Of a stretch of DNA of 64,000 bases, positions 2,363 through 29,100 are shown in pieces (the first letter of the stretch is position 1; each line of letters starts with the position of its first letter). The DNA is taken from the IMG/VR virus record IMGVR_UViG_3300005689_000302, positions 1-64,000 of that record; one strand, written 5' to 3'. The notes below the pieces were generated by a model. The model did no database searches and was not told the origin of the DNA. It saw nothing but the letters and a program-made list of their open reading frames with translations. The stretch comes from a virus (taxonomy: Duplodnaviria; Caudoviricetes). Made by a program: the position numbers and the translations under genes.

Positions 2363-2772
2363 TGAAAGCTCTATCCATCTGGCAACCCTGGGCTTCGGCG
2401 ATCGCCTCCGGCGTGAAGCAATACGAAACGCGCTCCTGGCCGACGAAGTATCGCGGGCCGATTGCGATCTGCGCGTCGAAGAAGTGGAATGACGATCTTT
2501 TCGAATTAGCTGCCGAGTATCTCGGAAGGTGGCCTGGCTTTCCTGAAGATTGGCCGCTGGGCGCGGTTGTGGCGACTGCGCACCTCGTTGAATGTCGACG
2601 GACGGAAGATATGATCGCCGACATCGGTCTCATGGAAATTACCCTGGGCGACTTCTCGCCGGGCCGCTTCGCCTGGCGGCTCGAAAGCGTGGTGAAGATT
2701 CCGCCGATTGAATACCGCGGGCGGCAAGGGTTGTTTGAGATTCCCGATGGTGTGATTGCGAACGGTGTCTAG
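2362..2772 (+). CDS. ASCH domain protein
   Basis: MKALSIWQPWASAIASGVKQYETRSWPTKYRGPIAICAS ... GRQGLF, the classic ASCH signature. Confidence 0.92.
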   Translation: MKALSIWQPWASAIASGVKQYETRSWPTKYRGPIAICASKKWNDDLFELAAEYLGRWPGFPEDWPLGAVVATAHLVECRRTEDMIADIGLMEITLGDFSPGRFAWRLESVVKIPPIEYRGRQGLFEIPDGVIANGV

Positions 2773-2927
2773 TGGACGAAGCTCAACTCAACGCGTTCTT
2801 CGACGGCCTGCATCTGCTGATCGTGCTTATGATTCTGGTCGCCGTGGCGCCGGCGCTAGTGGCGCTGCCGATGTTGGTCGAACCGCTCATCCAAAGGGTC
2901 GTTAAATGGCGAGTGCGGAAGAAATGA
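2772..2927 (+). CDS. 51-aa membrane protein (absent from ORF track)
   Basis: GTG overlaps the ASCH stop; MDEAQLNAFFDGLHLLIVLMILVAVAPALVALPMLVEPLIQRVVKWRVRKK; its stop overlaps the next ATG (ATGA). Confidence 0.7.
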   Translation: MDEAQLNAFFDGLHLLIVLMILVAVAPALVALPMLVEPLIQRVVKWRVRKK

Positions 2928-3391
2928 CGCCAAGCGAACGCGTACCGTGCCCTGTGTGTTTCGGGCGAAAGAAGCTCATTCCGGTTGTCGTTCGCCCGGC
3001 GCCGGGCGTCTCGCGTCAAGAAGTGGCTGAGTCGCTGGTCGATAACGACGGACTGGACTGCCCGACCTGCGGCTGCCAAGGCACGATCACCGAAGAACGC
3101 GAAAGGCGCCTGGAAATGGGCGGGAAACTCCGCGACGCTCGGCGCTCGGCGGGCATGGGCATTCGGGAATTTGCGGAAGCTCTCGGCGTTTTGCCTTCAG
3201 TCTGGAACGCCATTGAACATGGCCGCGGCCTCCCGGCCGCCGAACTGCCCGACGACATTCGCGTCTTTCTGCGCGGATGTGCTCATCGCTGCGATATGCT
3301 GCCGCTGGCGCTTCGGCCGCATGTGGAGCGATTGGCGGCGAAATACATTCCGCAAGAGTTTGTCGCCACGGATCCGAGGGCGAAGAAGTGA
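2924..3391 (+). CDS. Zn-finger plus XRE-type helix-turn-helix regulator
   Basis: CPVCFG...CPTCGCQG then LRDARRSAGMGIREFAEALGVLPSVWNAIEHG. Confidence 0.8.
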   Translation: MTPSERVPCPVCFGRKKLIPVVVRPAPGVSRQEVAESLVDNDGLDCPTCGCQGTITEERERRLEMGGKLRDARRSAGMGIREFAEALGVLPSVWNAIEHGRGLPAAELPDDIRVFLRGCAHRCDMLPLALRPHVERLAAKYIPQEFVATDPRAKK

Positions 3392-17160: not shown

Positions 17161-17850
17161 ATGGCGAAGAAGAAGCCGGCGAAGAAGAAGCCGGCGAAGA
17201 AGCAAAACAAACGGGCTGCGCCGAGCAAGGCCGCCAAACCGGCGCCGCGGAAGGCGGCCGCGCCCGCGAAGTCGGCGGCTCCGGCGCCGCCTGTGACGGC
17301 GGCGATGCTTTCCGGCCCGCCCGAGGCGTTCCACGAGATTCGCGAAATCAATCGGCGGTTGTTCCTGAAAGCCTACGCCGACCGCGGGACGATCAAACGG
17401 GCGGCGATGATCGCCGGCGTCGATCGTACGCTGCATTATCACTGGCTGCGCGACGACGGCTACAAAGCGGCTTTCGGCGAAGCGCAGCGGATGTATCGCG
17501 AGAAGCTCGAAGAAGAAGCCGATCGCCGGGCGGTCGATGGCGTCCAGCGATTGAAGTTTTTCAAGGGGGAGCTGATCCTCGTCCCGTGCGAGCCGGGCGA
17601 CCCGCTCGGCCGCTGCCTCGGCAAGACGGCGACTGGCGATGAAGTGTGGGCCAAGCCGTACATCGAGCACGAATATAGCGACAACCTGCTGATGTTCCGC
17701 CTGAAGCGCCTCGATCCGCGCTACAAAGACCGGATCGACGTCAAAACCAAACACAAAACAACGATCAAGCTCGAGCCGGCGCAAGCGCCGGGCGGCTTGC
17801 TGGAAGCGTTCCGGAAGCGATTACTCGACAATAAGCCGTGCCGCAAGTAA
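17161..17850 (+). CDS. terS: Terminase small subunit
   Basis: FLKAYADRGTIKRAAMIAGVDRTLHYHW HTH, LEEEADRRAVDG, EYSDNLLMFRLK; directly upstream of TerL; K/A/P-rich N-terminal tail. Confidence 0.85.
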   Translation: MAKKKPAKKKPAKKQNKRAAPSKAAKPAPRKAAAPAKSAAPAPPVTAAMLSGPPEAFHEIREINRRLFLKAYADRGTIKRAAMIAGVDRTLHYHWLRDDGYKAAFGEAQRMYREKLEEEADRRAVDGVQRLKFFKGELILVPCEPGDPLGRCLGKTATGDEVWAKPYIEHEYSDNLLMFRLKRLDPRYKDRIDVKTKHKTTIKLEPAQAPGGLLEAFRKRLLDNKPCRK

Positions 17851-20459
17851 AGGGAAAGTCGGCCGATCGGATCTTCCACGAGTGGATCAGCTCGGCGGCC
17901 GACGCCCAACCCGACTGGCGCCAGCATCAACGGCTACGCGAGACGCTCACGCCGGCGATGCTCGAGCGGTTCGACGCCGCCGGCGATCCGACGATCGCCC
18001 GTTTCGTGCATCTGCTGTTCACGCATCCGTACTACGCCTTCGAGCCGCGGGCGGACAATCTCGCCGACGGCGACGAGCAAGAATCGTTTGTCAACTCGCG
18101 ATCGCTGATTACGGTCGGGATCGGCGGCAACGGTTCGGGGAAAACGTATTGCGGCGCGCAGCGCTGCGTGAAGTTCCTCGCCGAACAACAAGCGCCGGTC
18201 CGCGATACGCCGTTTTGGATCATTGCCAACACCTTCGAACAGGCTTGCAACTCGACCTGGTTCCAGAAGCTGCGCACGATCCTGCCCGAGTGGTGGATCG
18301 ATTGGGAGCGCGTCGTGTGGCGCAACTCGAAGCGCGGCTGGCCGAAGTCGGTACCGCTGATTCCCGACGAACAGGGGCGCAACTGGCTGCTCGAGTGGAA
18401 AAGCTACGAAGAAGGCCGCGAAGCGATGCAAGCGACCGCCATCGGCGGCGCCTGGTTTACGGAAAACTTCCCCTGGGAAGTCTTTCAAGAAGTGCTGCGC
18501 GGCTGCCGCGAATGGATGCTGCCCGGCGCCGTGACGATGGAGTTAACCCCGCTCGATCCCGAGAAGTCGGCGCCGCTGCAAGACGCTTATGAATCGTGGT
18601 CGGCCGGCGATGAAAAGTTCAAGAATTGGTCGTTTCACTTCCTGAGCACGGTCGCCGCCCGCGACGCTGGCCACGTCAACGCCGACTGGTATCAAGCCTG
18701 GGTGGCGTCGATCAGCGACGAAATGCTCGCCACGCGCACCCGCGGGGCGTTCGCCAACTACGAAGGCTGCATCTATCAATCGTTCAACCCGAAGATCCAC
18801 CTGCTCGACGACATCACCCCGCCGGTCGATGAGTTCGGCCGGCCGACGGTCTATCACCGCCGGGCGATCGACTGGGGCGCCAGCGAAGAGCATCCGTTTG
18901 TCGTGCTGTGGGGCTACAAGGACGCGATCGGCTGCTGGTGGATTTACGACGAATATTGGAGCACCGCGCAAAACCTCACTTGGTCCGAGCACGTCGAACG
19001 GATCGCCAAGCGACACGAGCTCCACGACTGGGCGCGATGGGATGACGACGATCCCCATTACGGATCGACCTACGCCGACCCGAGCCGGCCCGATTTGATG
19101 CGCGAGTTTGCGATGCGCGGCTTGCCGATCACGGCCGCCCGCAACGCTGTTTATGAAGGGATCGAAGCGGTTCGCGCCTGCCTGAAGATCCACCCGCAAA
19201 CCGAAGAGCCGGGGCTGTTCATCGATCGCCACCGCTGCCCGAAGCTCGCCCGGCAAATGAGCACCTACCGCTGGGAGCGCTCGACCGGCGCCGGCGCCAA
19301 CCCGAAAGCGGCCCGCCCGGTGCCGCTCAAGAGAGACGATGACTGCTGCTTTCCTGCGGGTACGCTCGTCGCGACTCCCGAGGGGGCGACGGAAATTGAA
19401 AGCCTGCGCGCAGGCGACGCGGTGCTAACGCATCTGGGCGAAAGCCGAGTCGCTGTTGCCGAAGAAACAGGAGAAGAAGAGCTTTATCGGATTACTTTGA
19501 TCGACGGCCGTGTTATAGAATGTACCGCAACGCATCCGTTCGCAACATCAGACGGAGGCTTCGTTGCCGCCTGCGAACTGACGCCGGGGACATTCATTGA
19601 CAGCCTTCCATCATGCAAGTCCGCGAAGAGATCAACCGAAACGGAAAGCCTCGCGAAGTCATCGAATACGCCGGGCACGTCTGGTATCGATACCCGACTT
19701 GCCGTTCATCACCGGCAAGAACGTATTTCCGGCGATGCGAACGACGGGGCGGTCAGTCGGCGAAGATCCGCACGTTCTGGCTTCACAAGCAAGTCTGGAT
19801 CGACAACTTCGGAAAGATTCCCCGGGGCAGGGTTGTCCACCACAAAGATGAGAACCCAGCCAATAACAGAATCGACAACCTCGAGTTGCTCACTCCATCC
19901 GAGCATTCGAAGCGCCATCGAGCAAACATCGAAAAGGCGATTGACGCCGCTCGTCAGTGGCATGGAAGCAAGGTCGGAAAAGAATGGCACAAGCAGCATG
20001 GACTGCAAACCTGGAACGGTCGCACTTCGAAACTCAAGACCTGCGAATACTGCCGAAAGAGATTCGGGACGAAGGACCGCAAGCGCGCAACGCGATTTTG
20101 CAGCGATCAATGCCGAGCCTATTCGCGACGCCATCGCGGCGACGACAACGAAACCAGAACATGCGAATGGTGCGGGTCTGAGTTCGTCGTCAACCGTTTC
20201 GCAAAGACGACATGCTGCTCGAAAAAATGTGGTTGCCGTGCAAGTTGGGCGCGTGGAGCGCGCAAACCGAAGGGCAAGAGTCTTCAATCTGGCGACTGAC
20301 GACGGAACCTACTTCGCCAACGGCGTTCTCGTTTCCAACTGCGACGCCCTCCGCTACATGATTTACTCCGACGTCGGCAACCGCGCTCAAGGGATCCTCG
20401 CCCGCCGCGAGACGCCCCAAGCGCGGCCCGGCGTCCGCTTCAAACGCGTTTCTCGATAG
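17838..20459 (+). CDS. terL: Terminase large subunit (intein-containing)
   Basis: Walker A GGNGSGKT; nuclease motifs AIDWG, YADPS and DDC/CDALRY; spliced product reads KRDDDCCDALRY. Confidence 0.95.
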   Translation: MPQVKGKSADRIFHEWISSAADAQPDWRQHQRLRETLTPAMLERFDAAGDPTIARFVHLLFTHPYYAFEPRADNLADGDEQESFVNSRSLITVGIGGNGSGKTYCGAQRCVKFLAEQQAPVRDTPFWIIANTFEQACNSTWFQKLRTILPEWWIDWERVVWRNSKRGWPKSVPLIPDEQGRNWLLEWKSYEEGREAMQATAIGGAWFTENFPWEVFQEVLRGCREWMLPGAVTMELTPLDPEKSAPLQDAYESWSAGDEKFKNWSFHFLSTVAARDAGHVNADWYQAWVASISDEMLATRTRGAFANYEGCIYQSFNPKIHLLDDITPPVDEFGRPTVYHRRAIDWGASEEHPFVVLWGYKDAIGCWWIYDEYWSTAQNLTWSEHVERIAKRHELHDWARWDDDDPHYGSTYADPSRPDLMREFAMRGLPITAARNAVYEGIEAVRACLKIHPQTEEPGLFIDRHRCPKLARQMSTYRWERSTGAGANPKAARPVPLKRDDDCCFPAGTLVATPEGATEIESLRAGDAVLTHLGESRVAVAEETGEEELYRITLIDGRVIECTATHPFATSDGGFVAACELTPGTFIDSLPSCKSAKRSTETESLAKSSNTPGTSGIDTRLAVHHRQERISGDANDGAVSRRRSARSGFTSKSGSTTSERFPGAGLSTTKMRTQPITESTTSSCSLHPSIRSAIEQTSKRRLTPLVSGMEARSEKNGTSSMDCKPGTVALRNSRPANTAERDSGRRTASAQRDFAAINAEPIRDAIAATTTKPEHANGAGLSSSSTVSQRRHAARKNVVAVQVGRVERANRRARVFNLATDDGTYFANGVLVSNCDALRYMIYSDVGNRAQGILARRETPQARPGVRFKRVSR
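19347..20339 (+). mobile_element. Intein, 331 aa (C1...S-N; +1 Cys)
   Basis: Block A CFPAGTLVATPEG, block B ECTATHPF, blocks F/G VFNLATDDGTYFANGVLVSN|C; penultimate Ser instead of His. Confidence 0.93.
19613..20299 (+). CDS. HNH homing endonuclease nested out-of-frame inside the intein
   Basis: LHKQVWIDNFGKIPRGRVVHHKDENPANNRIDNLELLTPSEHSKRH plus two C-terminal CxxC...CSxxC zinc ribbons; frame differs from TerL. Confidence 0.92.
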   Translation: MQVREEINRNGKPREVIEYAGHVWYRYPTCRSSPARTYFRRCERRGGQSAKIRTFWLHKQVWIDNFGKIPRGRVVHHKDENPANNRIDNLELLTPSEHSKRHRANIEKAIDAARQWHGSKVGKEWHKQHGLQTWNGRTSKLKTCEYCRKRFGTKDRKRATRFCSDQCRAYSRRHRGDDNETRTCEWCGSEFVVNRFAKTTCCSKKCGCRASWARGARKPKGKSLQSGD

Positions 20460-20466
20460 GTTCGCC

Positions 20467-21489
20467 ATGCCTCGCCAACGCCCGCCGCGACAAGGCGCCC
20501 CGCCGCTGCGCTCGGAAGTCGAACAGCTCGTCGGCGACGTGCAACGCTATTTCCGCGGCGGTTCGACGGTGCGCAGCGCATTCGGTCAGCTCGCCTCGCT
20601 GGTCGCCGAGCTGCTCGGCTTCAGCCGCGGCCAGCGCGGGGCCCCGTCGCGCACCGACATTCAAGACGCGATCGACGTCATGGCCGAAGCGGGCCTCGAT
20701 CCGCGCAACGTGCAAGCCGCGGCGGCGACTGTGGGCGGCGCTGGTCGCGCCGGCCAGCCGTCGGCGCCGCGCAGCGGTCCCCAGCCGCTTACCGCCACGC
20801 AAACCTTACCGCGGCCAGCGCGCGGTTTTCGCGTCGGCGGCACGCCTCCCGGCTCGCCTTCGCTCGATCCGCGCAACCGGCTGCCGCCTGAATTGCGGCT
20901 GCCGCCAGGCGGCGATCGGATCACCGTCCCGGGCGATGCCGACTGGCCGGAAGAGCACCTGATCGACACCCGCGTTATCTCGGCGGCGCTGGTCGATCGA
21001 CTCACTGGCCAACAATCGCTCGAGTGGATCGAGACGCCGCAAAGCTCGAACGTCTACAGCTTCGCCTACGATCACTCGCAATCGATTCTGTACGTCACTT
21101 TCAAGGCGCCGAGCAATCAGCGCCGCCGGCCGCACGTCACCGGGGCAACCTACGCCTACGGTTCGAAGGCGCGGCCGATTCCCGCCCGGATGTACGAATC
21201 GCTCCTGCGGGCCAGCTCCAAGGGTGAATGGGTGTGGGACAAGCTCCGCGTCCGCGGCTCGCGCTGGCGCCACCAAGTGCCGTACATTCTCACCGCCGGC
21301 GGCTTCGACGGCCGGGCCGGCTTCGATGGCGATCCGATGGCGCACTACATTCCGCGGAAGGCTACCGCTCGCGGCTTTCGAGTGCGCACCGTGCCCGTTC
21401 TCGGCTCGGCGCGGCGCCGCGGCGCGATTGGCCGCTCGACGCTGCCTGAGCAAATCGGCCCTGCCTACCGGCAATCGCTCTTGCCGTAG
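20467..21489 (+). CDS. KTSC-domain-containing protein
   Basis: PQSSNVYSFAYDHSQSILYVTFK ... TYAY ... MYESLLRASSKGEWVWDKLR. Confidence 0.75.
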   Translation: MPRQRPPRQGAPPLRSEVEQLVGDVQRYFRGGSTVRSAFGQLASLVAELLGFSRGQRGAPSRTDIQDAIDVMAEAGLDPRNVQAAAATVGGAGRAGQPSAPRSGPQPLTATQTLPRPARGFRVGGTPPGSPSLDPRNRLPPELRLPPGGDRITVPGDADWPEEHLIDTRVISAALVDRLTGQQSLEWIETPQSSNVYSFAYDHSQSILYVTFKAPSNQRRRPHVTGATYAYGSKARPIPARMYESLLRASSKGEWVWDKLRVRGSRWRHQVPYILTAGGFDGRAGFDGDPMAHYIPRKATARGFRVRTVPVLGSARRRGAIGRSTLPEQIGPAYRQSLLP

Positions 21490-21963: not shown

Positions 21964-24900
21964 GTGCTTGCACCTAAAGGCGGCCTCCGCATCAACGGCA
22001 CTACCTACCGCGAAGGCGATCGCGTTACGAAGCGCGACGCCCGCGCGCTGCGCGATGCGCGCCGCCACGCCAAGCTAGGCCAATCGACGCAGCGAGCCGT
22101 CGATCCGGCGGCGCTGATTAAGGACGTCCCGCCAAACTTTGGGCGGGCGATCCTGCCTCACGTTATGACCTTCAGCGGCATGATGAGCACGCTCTCGAAG
22201 GTCTATCGCAACAGCGACGAAGCGCTGCGCCATTCCGTCGAAAACGCCCACATGATGGTTCAAGACCCGATGGTCATGGGCCCGATCTTGGCGCGGCAAA
22301 AGATGGTGGCGCTCTACAACTGGCATTTGCAACCGGAAGACGAAGACGACAAAACGCAGCAAGCGCTCTGCCGCGATCTGACGACGATCCTCAACCGCAT
22401 TCCGCGGTTTGTCGAATACCGGCGCATTCTGCTGCAAGCGGTCTTCTATGGTCGCTATGCGGTTCAGCATCAGTACAGCTTCCACACGGACAGCAAGCGC
22501 AACCGCCGAACGATCGTCTCGCACTATACGCCGATCAGCGGCGATAAGCTCGCTTTCCGCTACGACGACGGGCGCGGGGAGTATGACTACAACCAAGTCG
22601 GCGTGAAGGTGACGCCGGCGCTCAATCACCGCGACGTCATCGCCGGCGATCGGGAGCTGGAAGTGACCGGCGACGGGATGGCGTATTTCCTGCAGCCGTG
22701 GGAGCGCTCGCGGTTCGCCGTCCACAAGCATTTGCTGTGGGATGGCGATTATGAGGATCCGCTCTCGGCCGGCAAGATTCACGGCGTCGGCCTGCGCTCC
22801 TTCATCTATTGGGTCTGGTACCAGAAGCAAGAAGTGCTCGCCCAATTGATGGAGATTGTCGAGCGAACGGGAATGGGCTTCTACGTCTATTACTACCCGA
22901 TGGGCAACGCCGCCGCGAAGGCGGAAGTCGAGAAGATCGCCCAAGAGCAAGCGCATACCAACCGGATTATCGTCCCGCATGACCTGGGCGACCCCGACGC
23001 CTACCGGATCGAACAGATTCCGCCGAACACGGCGGGGATCGAGATTCTGCAAGCGATCGTCACGAATCACTTTCAGAATCAAATCACCAAGTTCGTTCTC
23101 GGGCAAACGCTCTCCACCGACGCGGCGGCAACGGGCCTGGGAAGCGGCGTCGCCGACCTGCACGAAAAATCGCTGCTCAACCTGGCGCGATACGACGCGA
23201 TCAACCTTGAGGAAACGATCACCCGCGAGCTGGTTTGGCCGCTACGGGATTTCAACTTTCCGAAGTATCGCTCGATCGACATCCTCTTCAAAATCGACAC
23301 GGAGTCGAGCACGCCGAAAGAAGACCTCGACGCGGCGAAGGCGCTGTGGGATATGGGCGCCGAGCTGAAGAGCGCCGACTTGTTCGACAAGCTCGGCCTC
23401 TCGATGCCCGGGCCGAACGATCTGAAGCTCTCTAATCCGCAATTGCAGCAGCAAGCCGCCGGCATGATGCCGGGGATGCCTGGAATGCCGCCGGGAATGC
23501 CGCCCGGGCTGCCTGGCGCCGATCCGATGGCTGGCATGATGGGCGGGCCGGAAGAAGGCGGGCCAGAGGATCAGCCGCCGGGCGACGATCCGAGCGAACC
23601 GCCTGGCGGGCCGCCGGCGATGCCGGGCGACGCGGCGCCGCAAGGGCCGGATCTGAAACGCATCTTCGGGCCGATTCTGCACGCCAAGCACAAGCCGGCC
23701 GAGGGCCAGCGCTCGTTGTGGGATGAAGAGAAGCATCCGCGCGACGAAGCCGGGAAGTTTGCGCCGAAGGCTGGCGATAAGTTCACGCTGCCGCCCGTTG
23801 GCGATCGGAAGCCGATGCCGATGAAGGTTTATGGCGTCGATGATGCGCACGCCTACGCCCAACTCGACACGCCCGAACATAACAAGTGGGCTGAGAAGTA
23901 TCCGGCGCCGGGAACCGGTTACGCGAAAGTTCCGCTGCAAAGCTGGAAGCATTTTGTCAACGATCTGAGCGGAAAGCTGCAATTCGACACGCCGAGCGGT
24001 AATCACGCTGTCGATGCGGTCGCCGCCGGCAAGGGCAAGTGGCTGGGCAAGGGCGACGACGGCGTCGCCTGGCGGGTCGGCGATTGGGTTGTCAAAGCGT
24101 CGACCACCGTTCCTTTTATTCCCGAAAACCCTGGCCACCGAACGCCCGATGAAGCGGCGGCCATGATGGAGAAGGCGAGCACGGCGCACGAGAAGCTACG
24201 GCGGGCCGGAGTGAAGGGCCTAGTTCCCATCTATCACTTCCGGCACGAAGACAAGCACCTGCAGGTAATGCCGTTTCTGGATACTGAAACGCCCCTGACG
24301 GGTGAACAGCTTTGGCAAATCGAGAAAACGCTCGAGCAAATCCACGCTGCCGGCTATACGCTGAACGATCAGATTCAAGCCGGCGTGATGGACGATGGCA
24401 ACGCCTATATTTATGACACCGGCAAGATTCGCCCCGGCGCCGACAACTGGAAGAAGGAAAGCGACCGCGACGAACTACGCGCCCTAAAGAGTCGTCACGG
24501 CCACCCGGAACCGATCGACGTATGGGATGGAAACAACGACGATCTGGACGCCGAGGACGCCGCCGAAGCGGCCGCGGCCCGCGAAGACGACAAGCGCCGC
24601 TATGGCATGGCGATGCGTTACGCCAAGCAAGCGAGCCTGTGGGACGAAGAGAAGCATCCCCGCGAAGACGACGGCAAGTTCGCCTTTACCTCGGGTCCGG
24701 GCGGCGGATCATCGCCCGCCAAGAGCAAGCCGGCCAGTCTCTTCGGTGATGATGACGCCGGCGACGATGAACCGTTCACCCTCGGCGCCGCGCCGAAGAA
24801 GGCAAAGCAAGGCGGGCGCTTCGAAGGCAAAGGAAAAGAAAAGCAGCCGCCACTCTTCTCGGGGCTGAACGCGCTGCCTGGTCAGAAAGATCTATTCGAC

Positions 24901-27900
24901 GATCTGGACAAACCGGCGCCGCCGGATCCTTTGAAAGCCCCGCGCGAAGCCGCGCCGCCGCCGAAGCTCGTCAGCGAGCCGCCGCCGGCGCCTGCGCCCA
25001 CCGCGACCGAATCGCTCGCTCCGATCAGCTCGAAGAATTACGCGCCGCATGTGTACGCCGGCCTCAACAAGCTGTGGGACGCCGGCGGGACGGCCTACGT
25101 CAACACGCATCTGAAAACGACGCGGATCGCGCCGAAGGATCGAGACGCGATCAAGCTCACGAGCAAGGGCGGTCTATACCTGCGCCGCGGCAAACATTGG
25201 GATGCGATCACCGGCGACGTACTCGATCGCCTGGGAAGCCAAGTCGGCCTACCGTCGAGCTACGATCTGCACAAGCAAGAATGGGACGCCGAGCACAAGA
25301 ACGCCCGCTACGGCGGCAAGCATCCGGGCGAACTACACGACGCCGAATTTCTCGATCACGCCGAAACGGAGAAGCGCCATCGGGCCAACTATTTCGACGC
25401 CGCCGGCAATAAGTTCGCGAGCAGTCGCGAGACGCCGGCCGAATATGTCGACCTCCCCATCGGTTCCTGGCGGAAGGATCGCAGCTTTAGCGGCCTCTAC
25501 GGAAACAGCATCGATCAGCTCGTCGAGCTCGATCCGAACCATTTGGAGTTGCCCGAGGGGGACTACGCCGCCAATCCGAATTTCAACCCGGAAGGGCGAC
25601 GATGGGATGCGGAGCGATACGCCGATTGGATCCGCGAGGGGAAAACCCCGCCGCCGATCAGCGTGCTCGAAATGCCCAATGGATCGCTGAAGGTTAGCGA
25701 TGGCCACCGCCGCGCCGCCGCCGCCAAGATGACCGGCCAGCCGATTCGCGCCTGGGTCAATTGGGCGGCCGATACCGGCAAGAAGGATTACGAAGGCAAG
25801 CCGATCCTGTCGGGGATGACCGATCAGCTCGCCGCGCGCGAGCACGCCGGCGAAGTCGAACCGCATAGCGGCCTGGGCTGGGGGCATGAGGGCGTTGTGA
25901 AGCGGGCGGGGCCTGAGCGACACGCCAAGCCTCGCCCCCTCGACGACTTTGCCCTGCGCAACTTCGCCGAGCGGATCCGCCGCGGCGATCAGCACGGCGC
26001 CCGCGATCTGCTCGTCCGGGCCGGCTTCGATCCGCTGACGCTCGACGCCTATTGGGGAATGATCGTTAAGTCAGTGGTGGGCGGAACTGCGCCGATCAAG
26101 CACGCCCGCGATCTTCGCGCCGCCATCACCGCCGCGGCTGACGCCACGAATACAGATCCGAGCGACGCCCAGCGCGAAGCCGGCAACTATCCCAAGGGCA
26201 AACTGTGGCTGCACGGCCTCGAGCTGACGATCGAGAACCCGAAAGGCTCGAAGCGCCGGCCGGAGTGGAAGCCGCTGGCGGCCCACTACGGCTACATTCG
26301 CCGCCACGAAGGCGCCGACGGCGATCAAGTCGATTGCTACCTCGGGCCCCATCCGGAAAGCCAGCTCGTCTTCGTCATCGATCAGCCGAAGGCCTCGGGG
26401 CGCTTTGACGAGCATAAGGTGATGTTCGGCTGGACGAACCTCCGCGACGCGCGAAAAGCGTACGCCGACTGCTATCAAGCCGGCTGGAAAGTCGGCCCGA
26501 TCACCGCCCTGACGATCGAGCAATTCAAAGACTGGCTCGAGTTCGGCGACTTGTCGAAGCCGATCGGCCGCTACAAGCCGGCGAAATACGCCCGCTCGAT
26601 GGCGTCGGTGCTGCGCTACGCCGAGCGATCGGAAGAACGCGGGCAAGGCCGCGGCCAGCCTGGCAATCGCGGGCAGTTCGGCTACGCGCCCAAGCGGAAG
26701 AAAACGATCGGGCAAGGCCAGCAAGAGTTCCATTGGGTGACGATCGACGGAACGCACGTTGCGATCAACGATGCGACCGGGGCGATCGAAAAGGGTCCGA
26801 AGGCGCTCGTGGGTAAGACGCTCGGCGGGCCGAAGAAACAGAAGGGGCTGTTTGACGACGACGATAAGCCGGCGAAAAAGGCGGAAGAGAAGCCCGAAGA
26901 GAAACGGGTCGAAGCGCCGCCCGAAAAGAAACCGCCCGAGGTGCCGGCGACGATCGAAGAGCTTGACGACGACGTTGTCGACGACGATGACATCGAAGCG
27001 GGGGACGATAGCGTTACCGATCGCCTCAAGTCCAGCGTAAACGCCTTTCTCGACGACAAGCCCGATGGCTCGTGGCGGGATTGGATGGATGAGCGCGGCA
27101 CGAAACATTTGCTCGACGAATTAGACGGCGGCGATGATAAGCTTCGCGGGCGATTGGAGTATGAAGCGTTTGAGCTGTTCGCTTGGAGGGAGCCGAAGGA
27201 GAAGGATCAGCCGGCGGGCGAAACGGCCGACGATGTACTCGAGCCTTTCGCAGAATCTCCGGAGCCAGCCGCCGACGCGTCGCCTGAGCCGGCTCTGCCC
27301 GCCGAGCAATCTGCCACACCCTCTGCCGCTCCCGCGCCAAAGCCTGCCGCGACGGCCAAGTCAAAGGGCGCCCGCGCCGCCGCCCGCGCGAAGTTGATGG
27401 AAGACTTCGGCGAAAAGATCGGCGGCGCTCGAAAGGAAACGGCGCGGCCTTCCAATCGTCCGAAAGTCGAGAAGCCCGCCGACGAACGGCCCGCCTGGGC
27501 GCGGCGCTACAACATTTCCCAAATCACCAAAAGCACGAAGCCCGGCGAAGAGGGGAAGTGGGCGATCTACGACACGAAACAAAAGACCTGGTCGGGCCAG
27601 CCGAAGCAAGTCGGCGGCGGCATGTTGTTTGATTCCAAGGAGGATGCCGAGAAGAGCTTGCCGCTGTACGAAGTATCGCGCAGCCACCGCGTCTACGCCT
27701 ACACGCCGAAGGGCGCGACCGAAAAGCAGTTCGGCATTTTCCGCAAACTGGGCGACCGAAAGACGCCGCTCGTCAAAGGCGGTTTTGCCTCCGAACAGGA
27801 GGCGATGCAACATATGGCGGCGAATCCACACGATGTTATCGGTCACAAGTTTCCGCGATACGAAAGCTACCAGTACCTCGATCGCGTCGAACGCAAGGGC

Positions 27901-29100
27901 GGGAAAGAGCATCGCAAGGGCGACGTGAAGCCGGCCGACTTTCAAAACGCCTTCAATTTCCGCGGCGGTGAGTTCGGCAACTGGCAATCGGGCAAGGATG
28001 GGCAAACCTCGCTCAATCACGCCTACGACGCCCTGCACGATCTGGCCGACGTGCTGGGAGTTCCGCCGAAAGCCGTCTCACTCAACGGCGATCTGGCAAT
28101 CGCTTTCGGGGCGCGCGGAACGGGCGGGAAAGACGCCGCCCGCGCCCATTACGAGCCCGAAAAGCGGGTTATCAACCTGACGAAAATGTCCGGCGCCGGC
28201 ACGCTGGCGCATGAGTGGCTGCACGCGCTGGACCACTACCTCGCCAAAGAGGCCGGCTCGAAGAAACACACGACGACGGGGCTTGGCTACAGGGAGAAGC
28301 TCCGCGACGATCTGCACGCCGCGATGAAGGGCGTTCACGACGCGTTGATGACGAAGACGGTCGAAGAAGGATTCTCTGACGAAAAGACGGGCAAGCAACG
28401 CGACGCGGCGCACGAGAACCTTGCCGAGCAACTGAAGAACATCGAGCAACTGTTTGACTACTACGGAAAGAAGAAGCCGTTCACGCCCGAGCAACAAAAG
28501 CAATGGAACGAGCTTAAGGGCAAGATTCTCGCGGGCGATGTGGGCAAGGCCGGCTACCTGCCGAGTAAATCGCAATATGGCGGTCCGCCGACGTTTGAGA
28601 ATCTGCATCAACTGAACCAGCTCTACAAGGCGCGCACCGGGCGCAGCTTCCATACGAGCGATCAAAACTCCTATGGCCACCGGCTCTATTGGGCGGCCAA
28701 GCATCTTGTTGATTCCAACGAAGCGGTGGAAAAGGCCAAGCAAGGCGCCACGCAACAGCGGAAAGCCAAGACGGATTTCTTTCATGCGGCCGTCGATTTG
28801 GACAAGACGCGCGCCAGCGACTATTACACGCTGCCCGAGGAAATGATGGCCCGCGCCTTCGAAGGCTACGTCATGGACAAGCTGGCGGCCAAGCAACAAA
28901 AGAACGATTACCTCGGCGGCAAGGCTGACAATCGATTCTATGAGGCTTACGGGATGAAGCCGTTCCCCGAGGGCGACGAACGCAAGGCGATCAACGCCGC
29001 CTTCGACAAGCTATTCACCACGCTCAAGCACGAATCGCGCAGCGACGAACGCGGCGAACACGCTCGGCTGTATTCCAAGTTGCGCGAACGGGTTTCCTAG
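21964..29100 (+). CDS. Portal (DUF935/Mu gp29-like) fused to a polyvalent cargo polyprotein, 2378 aa
   Basis: N-terminal about 500 aa portal (QAVFYGRYA, GVGLRSFIYW, VERTGMG, ITKFVLGQTLST, GLGSGVADLH); then kinase-like, ParB-like (DGHRR), InPase-like (ENPKGS, HYGYI, DGDQVD, FDEHKVM) and LPD5/LPD1-like (DFGEKIGGARK, GEFGNW, AHEWLHALD, ARAFE) segments; single open frame. Confidence 0.88.
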   Translation: MLAPKGGLRINGTTYREGDRVTKRDARALRDARRHAKLGQSTQRAVDPAALIKDVPPNFGRAILPHVMTFSGMMSTLSKVYRNSDEALRHSVENAHMMVQDPMVMGPILARQKMVALYNWHLQPEDEDDKTQQALCRDLTTILNRIPRFVEYRRILLQAVFYGRYAVQHQYSFHTDSKRNRRTIVSHYTPISGDKLAFRYDDGRGEYDYNQVGVKVTPALNHRDVIAGDRELEVTGDGMAYFLQPWERSRFAVHKHLLWDGDYEDPLSAGKIHGVGLRSFIYWVWYQKQEVLAQLMEIVERTGMGFYVYYYPMGNAAAKAEVEKIAQEQAHTNRIIVPHDLGDPDAYRIEQIPPNTAGIEILQAIVTNHFQNQITKFVLGQTLSTDAAATGLGSGVADLHEKSLLNLARYDAINLEETITRELVWPLRDFNFPKYRSIDILFKIDTESSTPKEDLDAAKALWDMGAELKSADLFDKLGLSMPGPNDLKLSNPQLQQQAAGMMPGMPGMPPGMPPGLPGADPMAGMMGGPEEGGPEDQPPGDDPSEPPGGPPAMPGDAAPQGPDLKRIFGPILHAKHKPAEGQRSLWDEEKHPRDEAGKFAPKAGDKFTLPPVGDRKPMPMKVYGVDDAHAYAQLDTPEHNKWAEKYPAPGTGYAKVPLQSWKHFVNDLSGKLQFDTPSGNHAVDAVAAGKGKWLGKGDDGVAWRVGDWVVKASTTVPFIPENPGHRTPDEAAAMMEKASTAHEKLRRAGVKGLVPIYHFRHEDKHLQVMPFLDTETPLTGEQLWQIEKTLEQIHAAGYTLNDQIQAGVMDDGNAYIYDTGKIRPGADNWKKESDRDELRALKSRHGHPEPIDVWDGNNDDLDAEDAAEAAAAREDDKRRYGMAMRYAKQASLWDEEKHPREDDGKFAFTSGPGGGSSPAKSKPASLFGDDDAGDDEPFTLGAAPKKAKQGGRFEGKGKEKQPPLFSGLNALPGQKDLFDDLDKPAPPDPLKAPREAAPPPKLVSEPPPAPAPTATESLAPISSKNYAPHVYAGLNKLWDAGGTAYVNTHLKTTRIAPKDRDAIKLTSKGGLYLRRGKHWDAITGDVLDRLGSQVGLPSSYDLHKQEWDAEHKNARYGGKHPGELHDAEFLDHAETEKRHRANYFDAAGNKFASSRETPAEYVDLPIGSWRKDRSFSGLYGNSIDQLVELDPNHLELPEGDYAANPNFNPEGRRWDAERYADWIREGKTPPPISVLEMPNGSLKVSDGHRRAAAAKMTGQPIRAWVNWAADTGKKDYEGKPILSGMTDQLAAREHAGEVEPHSGLGWGHEGVVKRAGPERHAKPRPLDDFALRNFAERIRRGDQHGARDLLVRAGFDPLTLDAYWGMIVKSVVGGTAPIKHARDLRAAITAAADATNTDPSDAQREAGNYPKGKLWLHGLELTIENPKGSKRRPEWKPLAAHYGYIRRHEGADGDQVDCYLGPHPESQLVFVIDQPKASGRFDEHKVMFGWTNLRDARKAYADCYQAGWKVGPITALTIEQFKDWLEFGDLSKPIGRYKPAKYARSMASVLRYAERSEERGQGRGQPGNRGQFGYAPKRKKTIGQGQQEFHWVTIDGTHVAINDATGAIEKGPKALVGKTLGGPKKQKGLFDDDDKPAKKAEEKPEEKRVEAPPEKKPPEVPATIEELDDDVVDDDDIEAGDDSVTDRLKSSVNAFLDDKPDGSWRDWMDERGTKHLLDELDGGDDKLRGRLEYEAFELFAWREPKEKDQPAGETADDVLEPFAESPEPAADASPEPALPAEQSATPSAAPAPKPAATAKSKGARAAARAKLMEDFGEKIGGARKETARPSNRPKVEKPADERPAWARRYNISQITKSTKPGEEGKWAIYDTKQKTWSGQPKQVGGGMLFDSKEDAEKSLPLYEVSRSHRVYAYTPKGATEKQFGIFRKLGDRKTPLVKGGFASEQEAMQHMAANPHDVIGHKFPRYESYQYLDRVERKGGKEHRKGDVKPADFQNAFNFRGGEFGNWQSGKDGQTSLNHAYDALHDLADVLGVPPKAVSLNGDLAIAFGARGTGGKDAARAHYEPEKRVINLTKMSGAGTLAHEWLHALDHYLAKEAGSKKHTTTGLGYREKLRDDLHAAMKGVHDALMTKTVEEGFSDEKTGKQRDAAHENLAEQLKNIEQLFDYYGKKKPFTPEQQKQWNELKGKILAGDVGKAGYLPSKSQYGGPPTFENLHQLNQLYKARTGRSFHTSDQNSYGHRLYWAAKHLVDSNEAVEKAKQGATQQRKAKTDFFHAAVDLDKTRASDYYTLPEEMMARAFEGYVMDKLAAKQQKNDYLGGKADNRFYEAYGMKPFPEGDERKAINAAFDKLFTTLKHESRSDERGEHARLYSKLRERVS

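Follow-up and report, generated by a model that had tools for sequence, protein, structure and literature searches.

How can one stretch of DNA inside an essential phage gene encode the middle of an intein in one reading frame and a complete endonuclease in another, and what keeps both frames open? The question is raised by terL, the gene for the large terminase, in a window of 64,000 nucleotides (nt), i.e., positions 1 to 64,000 of the IMG/VR virus record IMGVR_UViG_3300005689_000302 (Caudoviricetes), which has a length of 83,203 nt and is rated complete. The terL gene (17838..20459; this and all other features described here lie on the + strand) is a single open reading frame (ORF) for a precursor of 873 amino acids (aa), intein included. 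The locus is, with high probability, a composite selfish element, in which the endonuclease slot of a class-1 terL intein holds a separately translated HNH gene in the -1 frame. A gene for an HNH endonuclease of the free-standing type would thereby fill the slot where inteins normally hold an in-frame endonuclease domain. Ribosomes translating terL would read the HNH stretch in the TerL frame as a disordered linker (about 205 aa), for which the only need would be the absence of stop codons, and the two halves of the splicing (HINT) domain would then fold together, splice out, and restore TerL. The HNH protein would be made separately, by internal initiation at the ATG at 19613, and during co-infection it would nick or cut intein-less terL alleles, so that repair would copy intein and HNH gene together.

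That the insertion in terL is a bona fide class-1 intein is strongly supported by its sequence. Read in the TerL frame, it has 331 aa, beginning with Cys1 and ending with Asn (19347..20339; TerL residues 504-834), and, as an earlier note on this DNA had claimed, its splicing blocks are normal: blocks A, B, F, and G can all be read. Pfam Hint_2 matches with 31.3 bits, above its gathering score of 28.4, and Intein_splicing with 26.2 bits, under its cutoff of 35.8. Block A opens with CFPAGT (Cys1 at 19347), block B is T60-A-T-H63, and the C-terminus reads ...YFANGVLVSN^C (^, junction), with the terminal Asn at 20339 and the +1 Cys at 20340. Across 47 relatives, C1, H63, and N331 are invariant and T60 is at least 90% conserved, and at the +1 position 54 of 57 family members have Cys and the other 3 Ser. 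In the AlphaFold model of the intein, the HINT halves pack against each other as β-strands with a predicted local distance difference test score (pLDDT) of 97. The N-terminal half, with blocks A and B (about 90 aa, 19347..19616), reaches 96-98 over residues 1-90, and the C-terminal half, with blocks F and G (...VFNLATDDGTYFANGVLVSN, 20232..20339), which is conserved in the family alignment and whose coding sequence includes the final 68 nt of the HNH ORF, reaches 97-98 over residues 296-331.

The exteins delimit the insertion exactly. The N-extein (503 aa, 17838..19346) ends with KRDDDC and is colinear with residues 1-503 of the closest TerL relative (P0011/L088), a protein of 543 aa with 74% identity over the N-extein, and the C-extein (20340..20459), in which the +1 Cys is followed by DALRY of the nuclease-domain motif, aligns with residues 505-540 of the same relative. 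Terminase_6N and Terminase_6C match TerL weakly in Pfam. The intein interrupts the nuclease motif of TerL at the conserved site ...DD(D/H)-x^x-DALRY, and comparison with intein-less homologs shows a precise in-frame insertion, P0011 carrying the empty site KRDDDC-V-DALRY with nothing between. The intein-less site of the L088 type has ...GACGACGACTGC on one side of the insertion point and GTCGACGCG... on the other. Given the essential role of TerL and the conservation of the splicing residues, the intein would be expected to splice out of the precursor protein.

Inside the intein, and wholly within it, lies the nested gene (19613..20299), a 228-aa ORF with its own ATG and TGA in the +2 (= -1) frame relative to terL. 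The earlier note had described this ORF as containing a full HNH motif and two zinc ribbons, which is borne out by a Pfam HNH_3 match (E 3.6e-14, 52.5 bits, cutoff 24.8) and by an alignment of 43 relatives. In this alignment H76, H77, D79, N81, N85, N89, and H98 of the catalytic motif (H76 to H98, 19838..19906) are invariant. The same holds for the second of the two 4-Cys zinc-ribbon modules (C144/C147/C163/C167 and C184/C187/C202/C206, 20042..20230), and the first is nearly invariant. The product is modeled by AlphaFold with a mean pLDDT of 94.5 in the order N-terminal β-domain, HNH motif, and two zinc ribbons, each of the latter consisting of a β-hairpin and a helix. Its only match in the PDB is I-HmuI (1u3e), both by profile (E 1.2e-4) and by Foldseek (probability 0.99). 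With this homing endonuclease, which is encoded in a group I intron of a Bacillus phage and not in an intein, it shares the elongated modular build with an N-terminal β-domain, the HNH motif, and helices, although the C-terminal DNA-binding part of I-HmuI does not consist of paired zinc ribbons and the extended shape of both proteins keeps the template modeling (TM) scores of the HNH model against I-HmuI low (0.22-0.26). The nested ORF thus appears to encode an I-HmuI-like HNH endonuclease of the free-standing type, for which cleavage or nicking activity would be predicted. Its stop (TGA 20299) falls, as had been noted before, inside block F, 14 codons ahead of the terminal Asn of the intein.

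Two compensating indel errors in the assembly could in principle mask an ordinary intein with an in-frame HNH domain, and the earlier note had named such errors as a finding that would overturn its interpretation. Contigs covering 19200-20500 come from four sequencing runs of two studies, one of bioreactor sludge (2014-15) and one of a bioreactor (2025), and contain no insertions or deletions; no RNA data set is listed as containing this stretch. One of them covers 19658-20344, and a contig from the independent study covers the 5' frame junction (19579-19729). An identical 873-aa product is encoded on three contigs of the Joint Genome Institute (JGI), a variant with at least 90% identity occurs on Logan/ENA contigs, and the same frame offset recurs in the 73 diverged loci described below. 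An artefact can therefore be regarded as practically negligible. The sole difference among the contigs is a G>A exchange at 19982 in the independent 2025 bioreactor run, which is synonymous for TerL (AAG to AAA) and results in E124K at a variable position of the HNH protein.

The layout is not peculiar to this phage. The nearest HNH relatives (49% identity) are found on short metagenome contigs, and the two of these that are readable both combine an open terL intein frame with an HNH gene in the other frame. A scan of IMG/VR with the HNH alignment yields 80 loci with 30-46% identity, and in 78 of them the frame +1 relative to the HNH gene, i.e., with the same offset as in the window, is open over the entire HNH ORF. 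In most of these 78 loci the open frame is part of an ORF of about 600-1200 aa, a few being shortened by contig ends. Since two (L032 and L048) lack intein motifs in the open frame, about 74-76 are truly nested. In nested loci the HNH gene is flanked by intein blocks A, B, F, and G of canonical form, and the intein is inserted at the same terL motif (...D(D/N)H^C ... HN^C-x-DALRY). After removal of duplicates from the IMG/VR loci and inclusion of cultured phages, 73 distinct nested loci with a GC content of 27-64% are obtained, which share the relative frame and the terL site at an HNH identity of 30-49%. In the family, the HNH gene starts at a median of 84 aa past Cys1, and its stop is separated from the terminal Asn by a median of 19 codons.

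An HNH domain in frame with the intein does not occur among the members recovered from IMG/VR. HNH-intein fusions are likewise absent among proteins of 400-2000 aa, which is weak evidence, and among the best 150 of the 1,326 strong profile matches. Two larger proteins, P0140 (1662 aa) and P0248 (1134 aa), match the zinc-ribbon part of the HNH profile only, 23 and 15 times, and are arrays of the same Cys4 module without an HNH domain. The HNH family comprises 1,326 strong cluster representatives and extends to phages of Actinobacteria, Firmicutes, and Proteobacteria. Among cultured phages, the nested layout is present in Tetrasphaera phage TJE1 and the Clostridium phages phiCDHM19 and phiCD119, and probably also in Vibrio phages 1.238 and 1.245, Acinetobacter phage Highwayman, and a Rhodobacteraceae phage. 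For TJE1 (L084, NC_019930 13379-15565) and phiCDHM19 (L086, NC_028996 443-2842), GenBank annotates terL only, with neither an intein note nor an HNH coding sequence (CDS).

What, then, keeps the TerL frame open across the HNH gene? The interior of the intein in this frame (19617..20231, about 205-206 aa), which the earlier note had called S/T/R-rich shadow sequence without nuclease motifs, indeed consists to 82% of small or polar residues (S/A/R/T-rich), yields no nuclease domain in a Pfam search, and is not conserved in sequence. Between the well-modeled HINT halves, these approximately 200 residues have a pLDDT of 43-52 and no secondary structure. Over the overlap, the TerL frame contains zero stop codons in 73 of 73 distinct loci, whereas 4.8 open loci would be expected from a conservative synonymous shuffle (summed log10 P about -124), and the third frame contains about 20 stops per locus, as expected. 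An open frame by chance is thus rejected, at the level of the family only. Substitutions follow the HNH frame: among close pairs, differences at its codon positions 1, 2, and 3 amount to 0.14, 0.11, and 0.29, and in the N-terminal splicing region it is the TerL frame that sets the periodicity (0.11, 0.11, 0.31). Amino acid identity in the overlap is 0.38 in the HNH frame, 0.21 in the TerL frame, and 0.20 in the third frame for all pairs, and 0.80, 0.65, and 0.64, respectively, for close pairs. The bias of substitutions toward the HNH frame, together with the disordered linker of the model, indicates that the DNA is dual-coded, with a conserved enzyme in one frame and a linker that is open and nothing else in the other. 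From the substitution patterns and structure predictions it is strongly supported that selection keeps the TerL frame in the overlap open merely as a linker, and the dual-coded element proposed in the earlier note, its host frame kept open in this way, agrees with frame conservation as well as with the empty and mini-intein alleles. The two frames also meet at the borders of the overlap. The ATG of the HNH gene always imposes a Trp or Cys codon on the terL frame (xxA TGx) in the family loci (L002-L086), and its stop is usually made of conserved block F codons, spanning Tyr-Asp, Tyr-Asn, or Tyr-Glu in 19 of 73 loci and Val/Ile-Glu/Asp in 14 of 73.

A homing element should be distributed sporadically and its parts should move jointly, and both features are found here in empty and mini-intein alleles, in three related loci, and in a foreign composition. 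In addition to the precisely empty site of P0011/L088, there is no HNH gene within 7.6 kb of the terminase genes of this closest relative. Most other TerL relatives have about 520-550 aa and lack an insert, and those with 50-60% identity lack the intein. A search of IMG/VR by peptide patterns found no close terL relatives, and a TerL relative with 45% identity is encoded in the genome of Symmachiella dynata (Planctomycetota). At the same terL site, a Logan contig of SRR22868776 (P0046/L090, 2735-3178) carries a homologous mini-intein of 148 aa with a linker of about 40 aa and without an HNH remnant in any frame, which indicates that the long linker is dispensable for a contiguous intein of this lineage. 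This mini-intein represents either the state before capture of an HNH gene or a clean loss of the endonuclease. In the loci L009, L016, and L024, splicing domains are 76-90% identical and HNH genes 62-77%, while exteins are only about 50% identical, a pattern that fits co-transfer of intein and HNH gene, i.e., homing. Because of saturation, the distances of HNH, splicing domain, and exteins correlate weakly with each other in Mantel-type comparisons (rho 0.25, 0.35, 0.08). In the window, the intein/HNH element has a GC content of about 55% between flanks of 62-70%, and its GC content at third codon positions (GC3) is 0.53-0.62 as compared to 0.80 in the exteins (0.81 in the N-extein and 0.80 in the C-extein). 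Owing to this foreign composition, the unit has probably entered this phage fairly recently.

Several observations nevertheless weigh against a functional composite element, some of them made in the window itself and others on relatives of its HNH gene. The penultimate residue of the intein is Ser, as had already been remarked, in place of the usual His. Inteins without a penultimate His can still splice, and among the 57 family members His holds this position in 33, with Ser (17), Lys (3), Leu (2), and Phe (2) accounting for the rest. Taken alone, the open TerL frame at this single locus could be due to chance given the codon usage, the probability of an open frame being 0.48 in a synonymous shuffle with the gene's own codons, 0.06 with the codon usage of the phage, and 0.00075 with uniform codons. 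Also, there is no Shine-Dalgarno sequence before the HNH ATG of the window, and a scan of 19200-20500 found no promoter-like sites of the sigma-70 type, a consensus that may not be the type used by the host. The earlier note had proposed a -10-like TAGAAT as a promoter for separate expression. The hexamer is present (19516-19521), but it lacks a -35 partner, and its role as a promoter thus finds no support.

The lack of a Shine-Dalgarno sequence and of promoter-like sites, and open frames compatible with chance at this locus, would agree with an HNH gene that in this phage is a silent or decaying passenger of an intein that still splices, selection merely keeping terL open, and mini-intein alleles illustrate that loss of the endonuclease is possible. 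However, the ORF has its full length, the catalytic and zinc-binding residues invariant in the family are intact, and the fold is predicted with high confidence, all of which speaks against decay. RNA around the HNH start does not exceed shuffled controls in stability (z = +1.3). At many likely gene starts in this phage (e.g., 21964, 29142, 43573, and 54412), the leaders are pyrimidine-rich and have no Shine-Dalgarno sequence, so that its lack at the HNH start carries little weight, and the phage may infect a bacterium that relies little on such sequences. In the family, a clear Shine-Dalgarno sequence 6-12 nt before the HNH start occurs in about 30% of members, and its enrichment is weak overall (Wilcoxon p = 0.03). 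A silent passenger is hence judged to be quite unlikely.

If the HNH gene is expressed, a programmed -1 ribosomal frameshift from terL, leading to a fusion of N-extein, N-terminal intein half, and HNH protein, might be invoked as well, since all nested members have their HNH gene in the -1 frame relative to terL. In the window, however, a TGA in the HNH frame (19598..19600) precedes the ATG by four codons and no slippery heptamer is present in 19560-19620. The family behaves alike, with a median of 4 codons between the upstream stop in the HNH frame and the start, which is an ATG in 68 of 73 loci. The conserved ATG, the near upstream stop, and the lack of a slippery heptamer favor independent initiation, and for frameshifting only a very slim chance is left. 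Separate translation of the HNH protein from the ATG at 19613 is what these sequence features suggest.

The remaining points against homing as the role of the HNH protein concern free-standing members of its family. Six are found, at least two of them beside terminase genes. Pseudomonas phage PAE1 (L085, 2265-2882) has such a gene flanked by terL and the portal gene, and Acinetobacter phage BP10 (L087, locus 2495-3136) has one just upstream of terS, in both cases without an intein. A second 'homing endonuclease' is annotated two genes further along in PAE1. The neighborhood of free-standing relatives to terminase genes leaves room for a role in packaging, and the HNH protein might be a terminase-associated packaging cofactor of the HK97 gp74 type, housed in the terL intein and co-expressed with the terminase, but not a homing enzyme. 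A functional link between the two was speculated upon for brucellaphages (Tevdoradze et al., 2015; PMC4422536). For a cofactor one would expect conserved presence alongside the cognate terminase, but this is not what is observed: TerL relatives with 74% and with 50-60% identity do without the intein, the surroundings of the closest relative's terminase genes contain no HNH gene, and the mini-intein allele lacks one. Furthermore, the only HNH relative with a solved structure, I-HmuI, is a homing endonuclease, some units of intein and HNH gene are far more alike than their exteins, and the unit is compositionally foreign in this phage. A packaging cofactor is for these reasons considered improbable, if somewhat less so than a silent passenger.

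In a quickly searched tree of the HNH family, free-standing members are scattered among nested ones and most forks are poorly supported, a poor resolution that also weighs against the composite element. Tentatively, their placement fits either capture of a terminase-targeting homing endonuclease gene (HEG) by a mini-intein or escapes from inteins. As judged from the family sequences, the out-of-frame layout is old and stable. A more far-reaching scenario, which we put forward with reservation and to which we give somewhat less than an even chance, sees the layout as an old, stable end state and not as an intermediate on the way to a split or in-frame intein. In this scenario a terminase-adjacent, I-HmuI-like HNH gene would have been captured once by a terL mini-intein, the unit would have spread among phages infecting several bacterial phyla, the HNH gene keeping to the -1 frame throughout, and free-standing genes would have repeatedly escaped from or re-entered inteins. 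If this were true, overprinting would be a general route by which inteins gain nucleases without fusion.

Contrary to the earlier note, which took an out-of-frame HNH gene inside a bona fide intein to be unreported, the layout itself is already known; it was noted in 2012-2015 and formalized in 2025. In Brucella phage Tb/Pr (Perisivirus, NC_019446), annotated in 2012, gp07 is a terL with the remark 'intein present' and gp08 a 'putative HNH endonuclease', a nested CDS of 687 nt, and the terL intein with its out-of-frame HNH gene was discussed by Tevdoradze et al. (2015). As in the window, the Tb intein harbors a same-strand HNH ORF of 228 aa in another frame, and the terL frame is open. In contrast to the window, the Tb intein interrupts TerL at another site, within the N-terminal half (residue 175), its HNH gene is in the +1 frame and not in the -1 frame, and in its product the zinc ribbons come first and the HNH motif is located at residues 160-190. 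Only the 30-aa HNH motif can be aligned between the two HNH proteins, and the Tb element, to go by these differences, is of independent origin and does not belong to the same lineage.

Inteins with an endonuclease in another frame, endonuclease VII-like (IPR004211), or on the opposite strand were reported by Gosselin, Arsenault, and Gogarten (bioRxiv 2025), who call such layouts rare, propose that they originate from a free-standing HEG invading an intein, and find that the in-frame middle part forms no recognizable structure. Their cases, many of them in terL, have the same design and the same relative frame as the window. The nuclease, however, is endonuclease VII-like there and HNH_3/I-HmuI-like in the family of the window, and a Pfam search of the window's element gives no match to Endonuclease_7. 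Unlike their cases, the HNH family has no PhagesDB-type actinophages among its cultured-phage matches. The window thus shares the layout of the described out-of-frame, same-strand intein endonucleases but not their nuclease lineage. A preprint of 2026 refers, by its title, to an out-of-frame homing endonuclease in a cyanobacterial dnaX intein.

Related arrangements exist outside contiguous inteins. Out-of-frame HNH genes of the ShiLan type are located in insertions of mycobacteriophage DNA methylases (Arsenault et al., 2025; PMC11855218). In both systems an HNH gene is hidden in an in-frame insertion, the host frame is open, an obvious ribosome-binding site is missing, and homing is what has been proposed. 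The ShiLan insertion, however, lacks a splicing domain and is presumably retained in the protein, whereas the HNH gene of the window is flanked by a canonical HINT domain. In fractured genes, split inteins contain a free-standing HEG between their halves (Dassa et al., 2009; PMC2677866). There, too, a HEG of the free-standing type occupies the endonuclease slot and its 3' end overlaps the C-terminal intein half, by 6-69 bp as compared to about 68 nt in the window. In contrast to fractured genes, in which the host gene is divided into two ORFs and splicing occurs in trans, the terL of the window is one uninterrupted ORF with a contiguous intein, as it is in 73 of 73 relatives.

The locus therefore is a further case of a known layout and represents a large, widespread lineage that differs from the published cases in nuclease family, site, and frame. 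Our literature search found no paper tying the HNH_3/I-HmuI-like family, or phages TJE1, phiCD119, or phiCDHM19, to an intein, and this large HNH family, of which cultured members exist, has apparently not been described as such. In this family an essential phage gene tolerates about 200 unselected, disordered codons so that the gene for a selfish nuclease can be overprinted on them. The finding bears on the source of intein endonucleases (a "splicing first" route, in which a free-standing HEG is captured later), on the origin of split inteins, and on the number of nested genes that are missed by phage annotation.

The genes downstream of terL provide some context for the locus. Directly following is a gene for a 340-aa protein with a KTSC domain (20467-21489; E 3e-6), which is not preceded by a Shine-Dalgarno sequence. 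Further downstream, a polyvalent protein of 2378 aa is encoded (21964-29100), consisting of Portal_Mu (residues 97-479), an InPase inorganic pyrophosphatase domain (1401-1526), and LPD1 (2279-2357), and a counterpart of 2161 aa is present in the intein-less relative L088.

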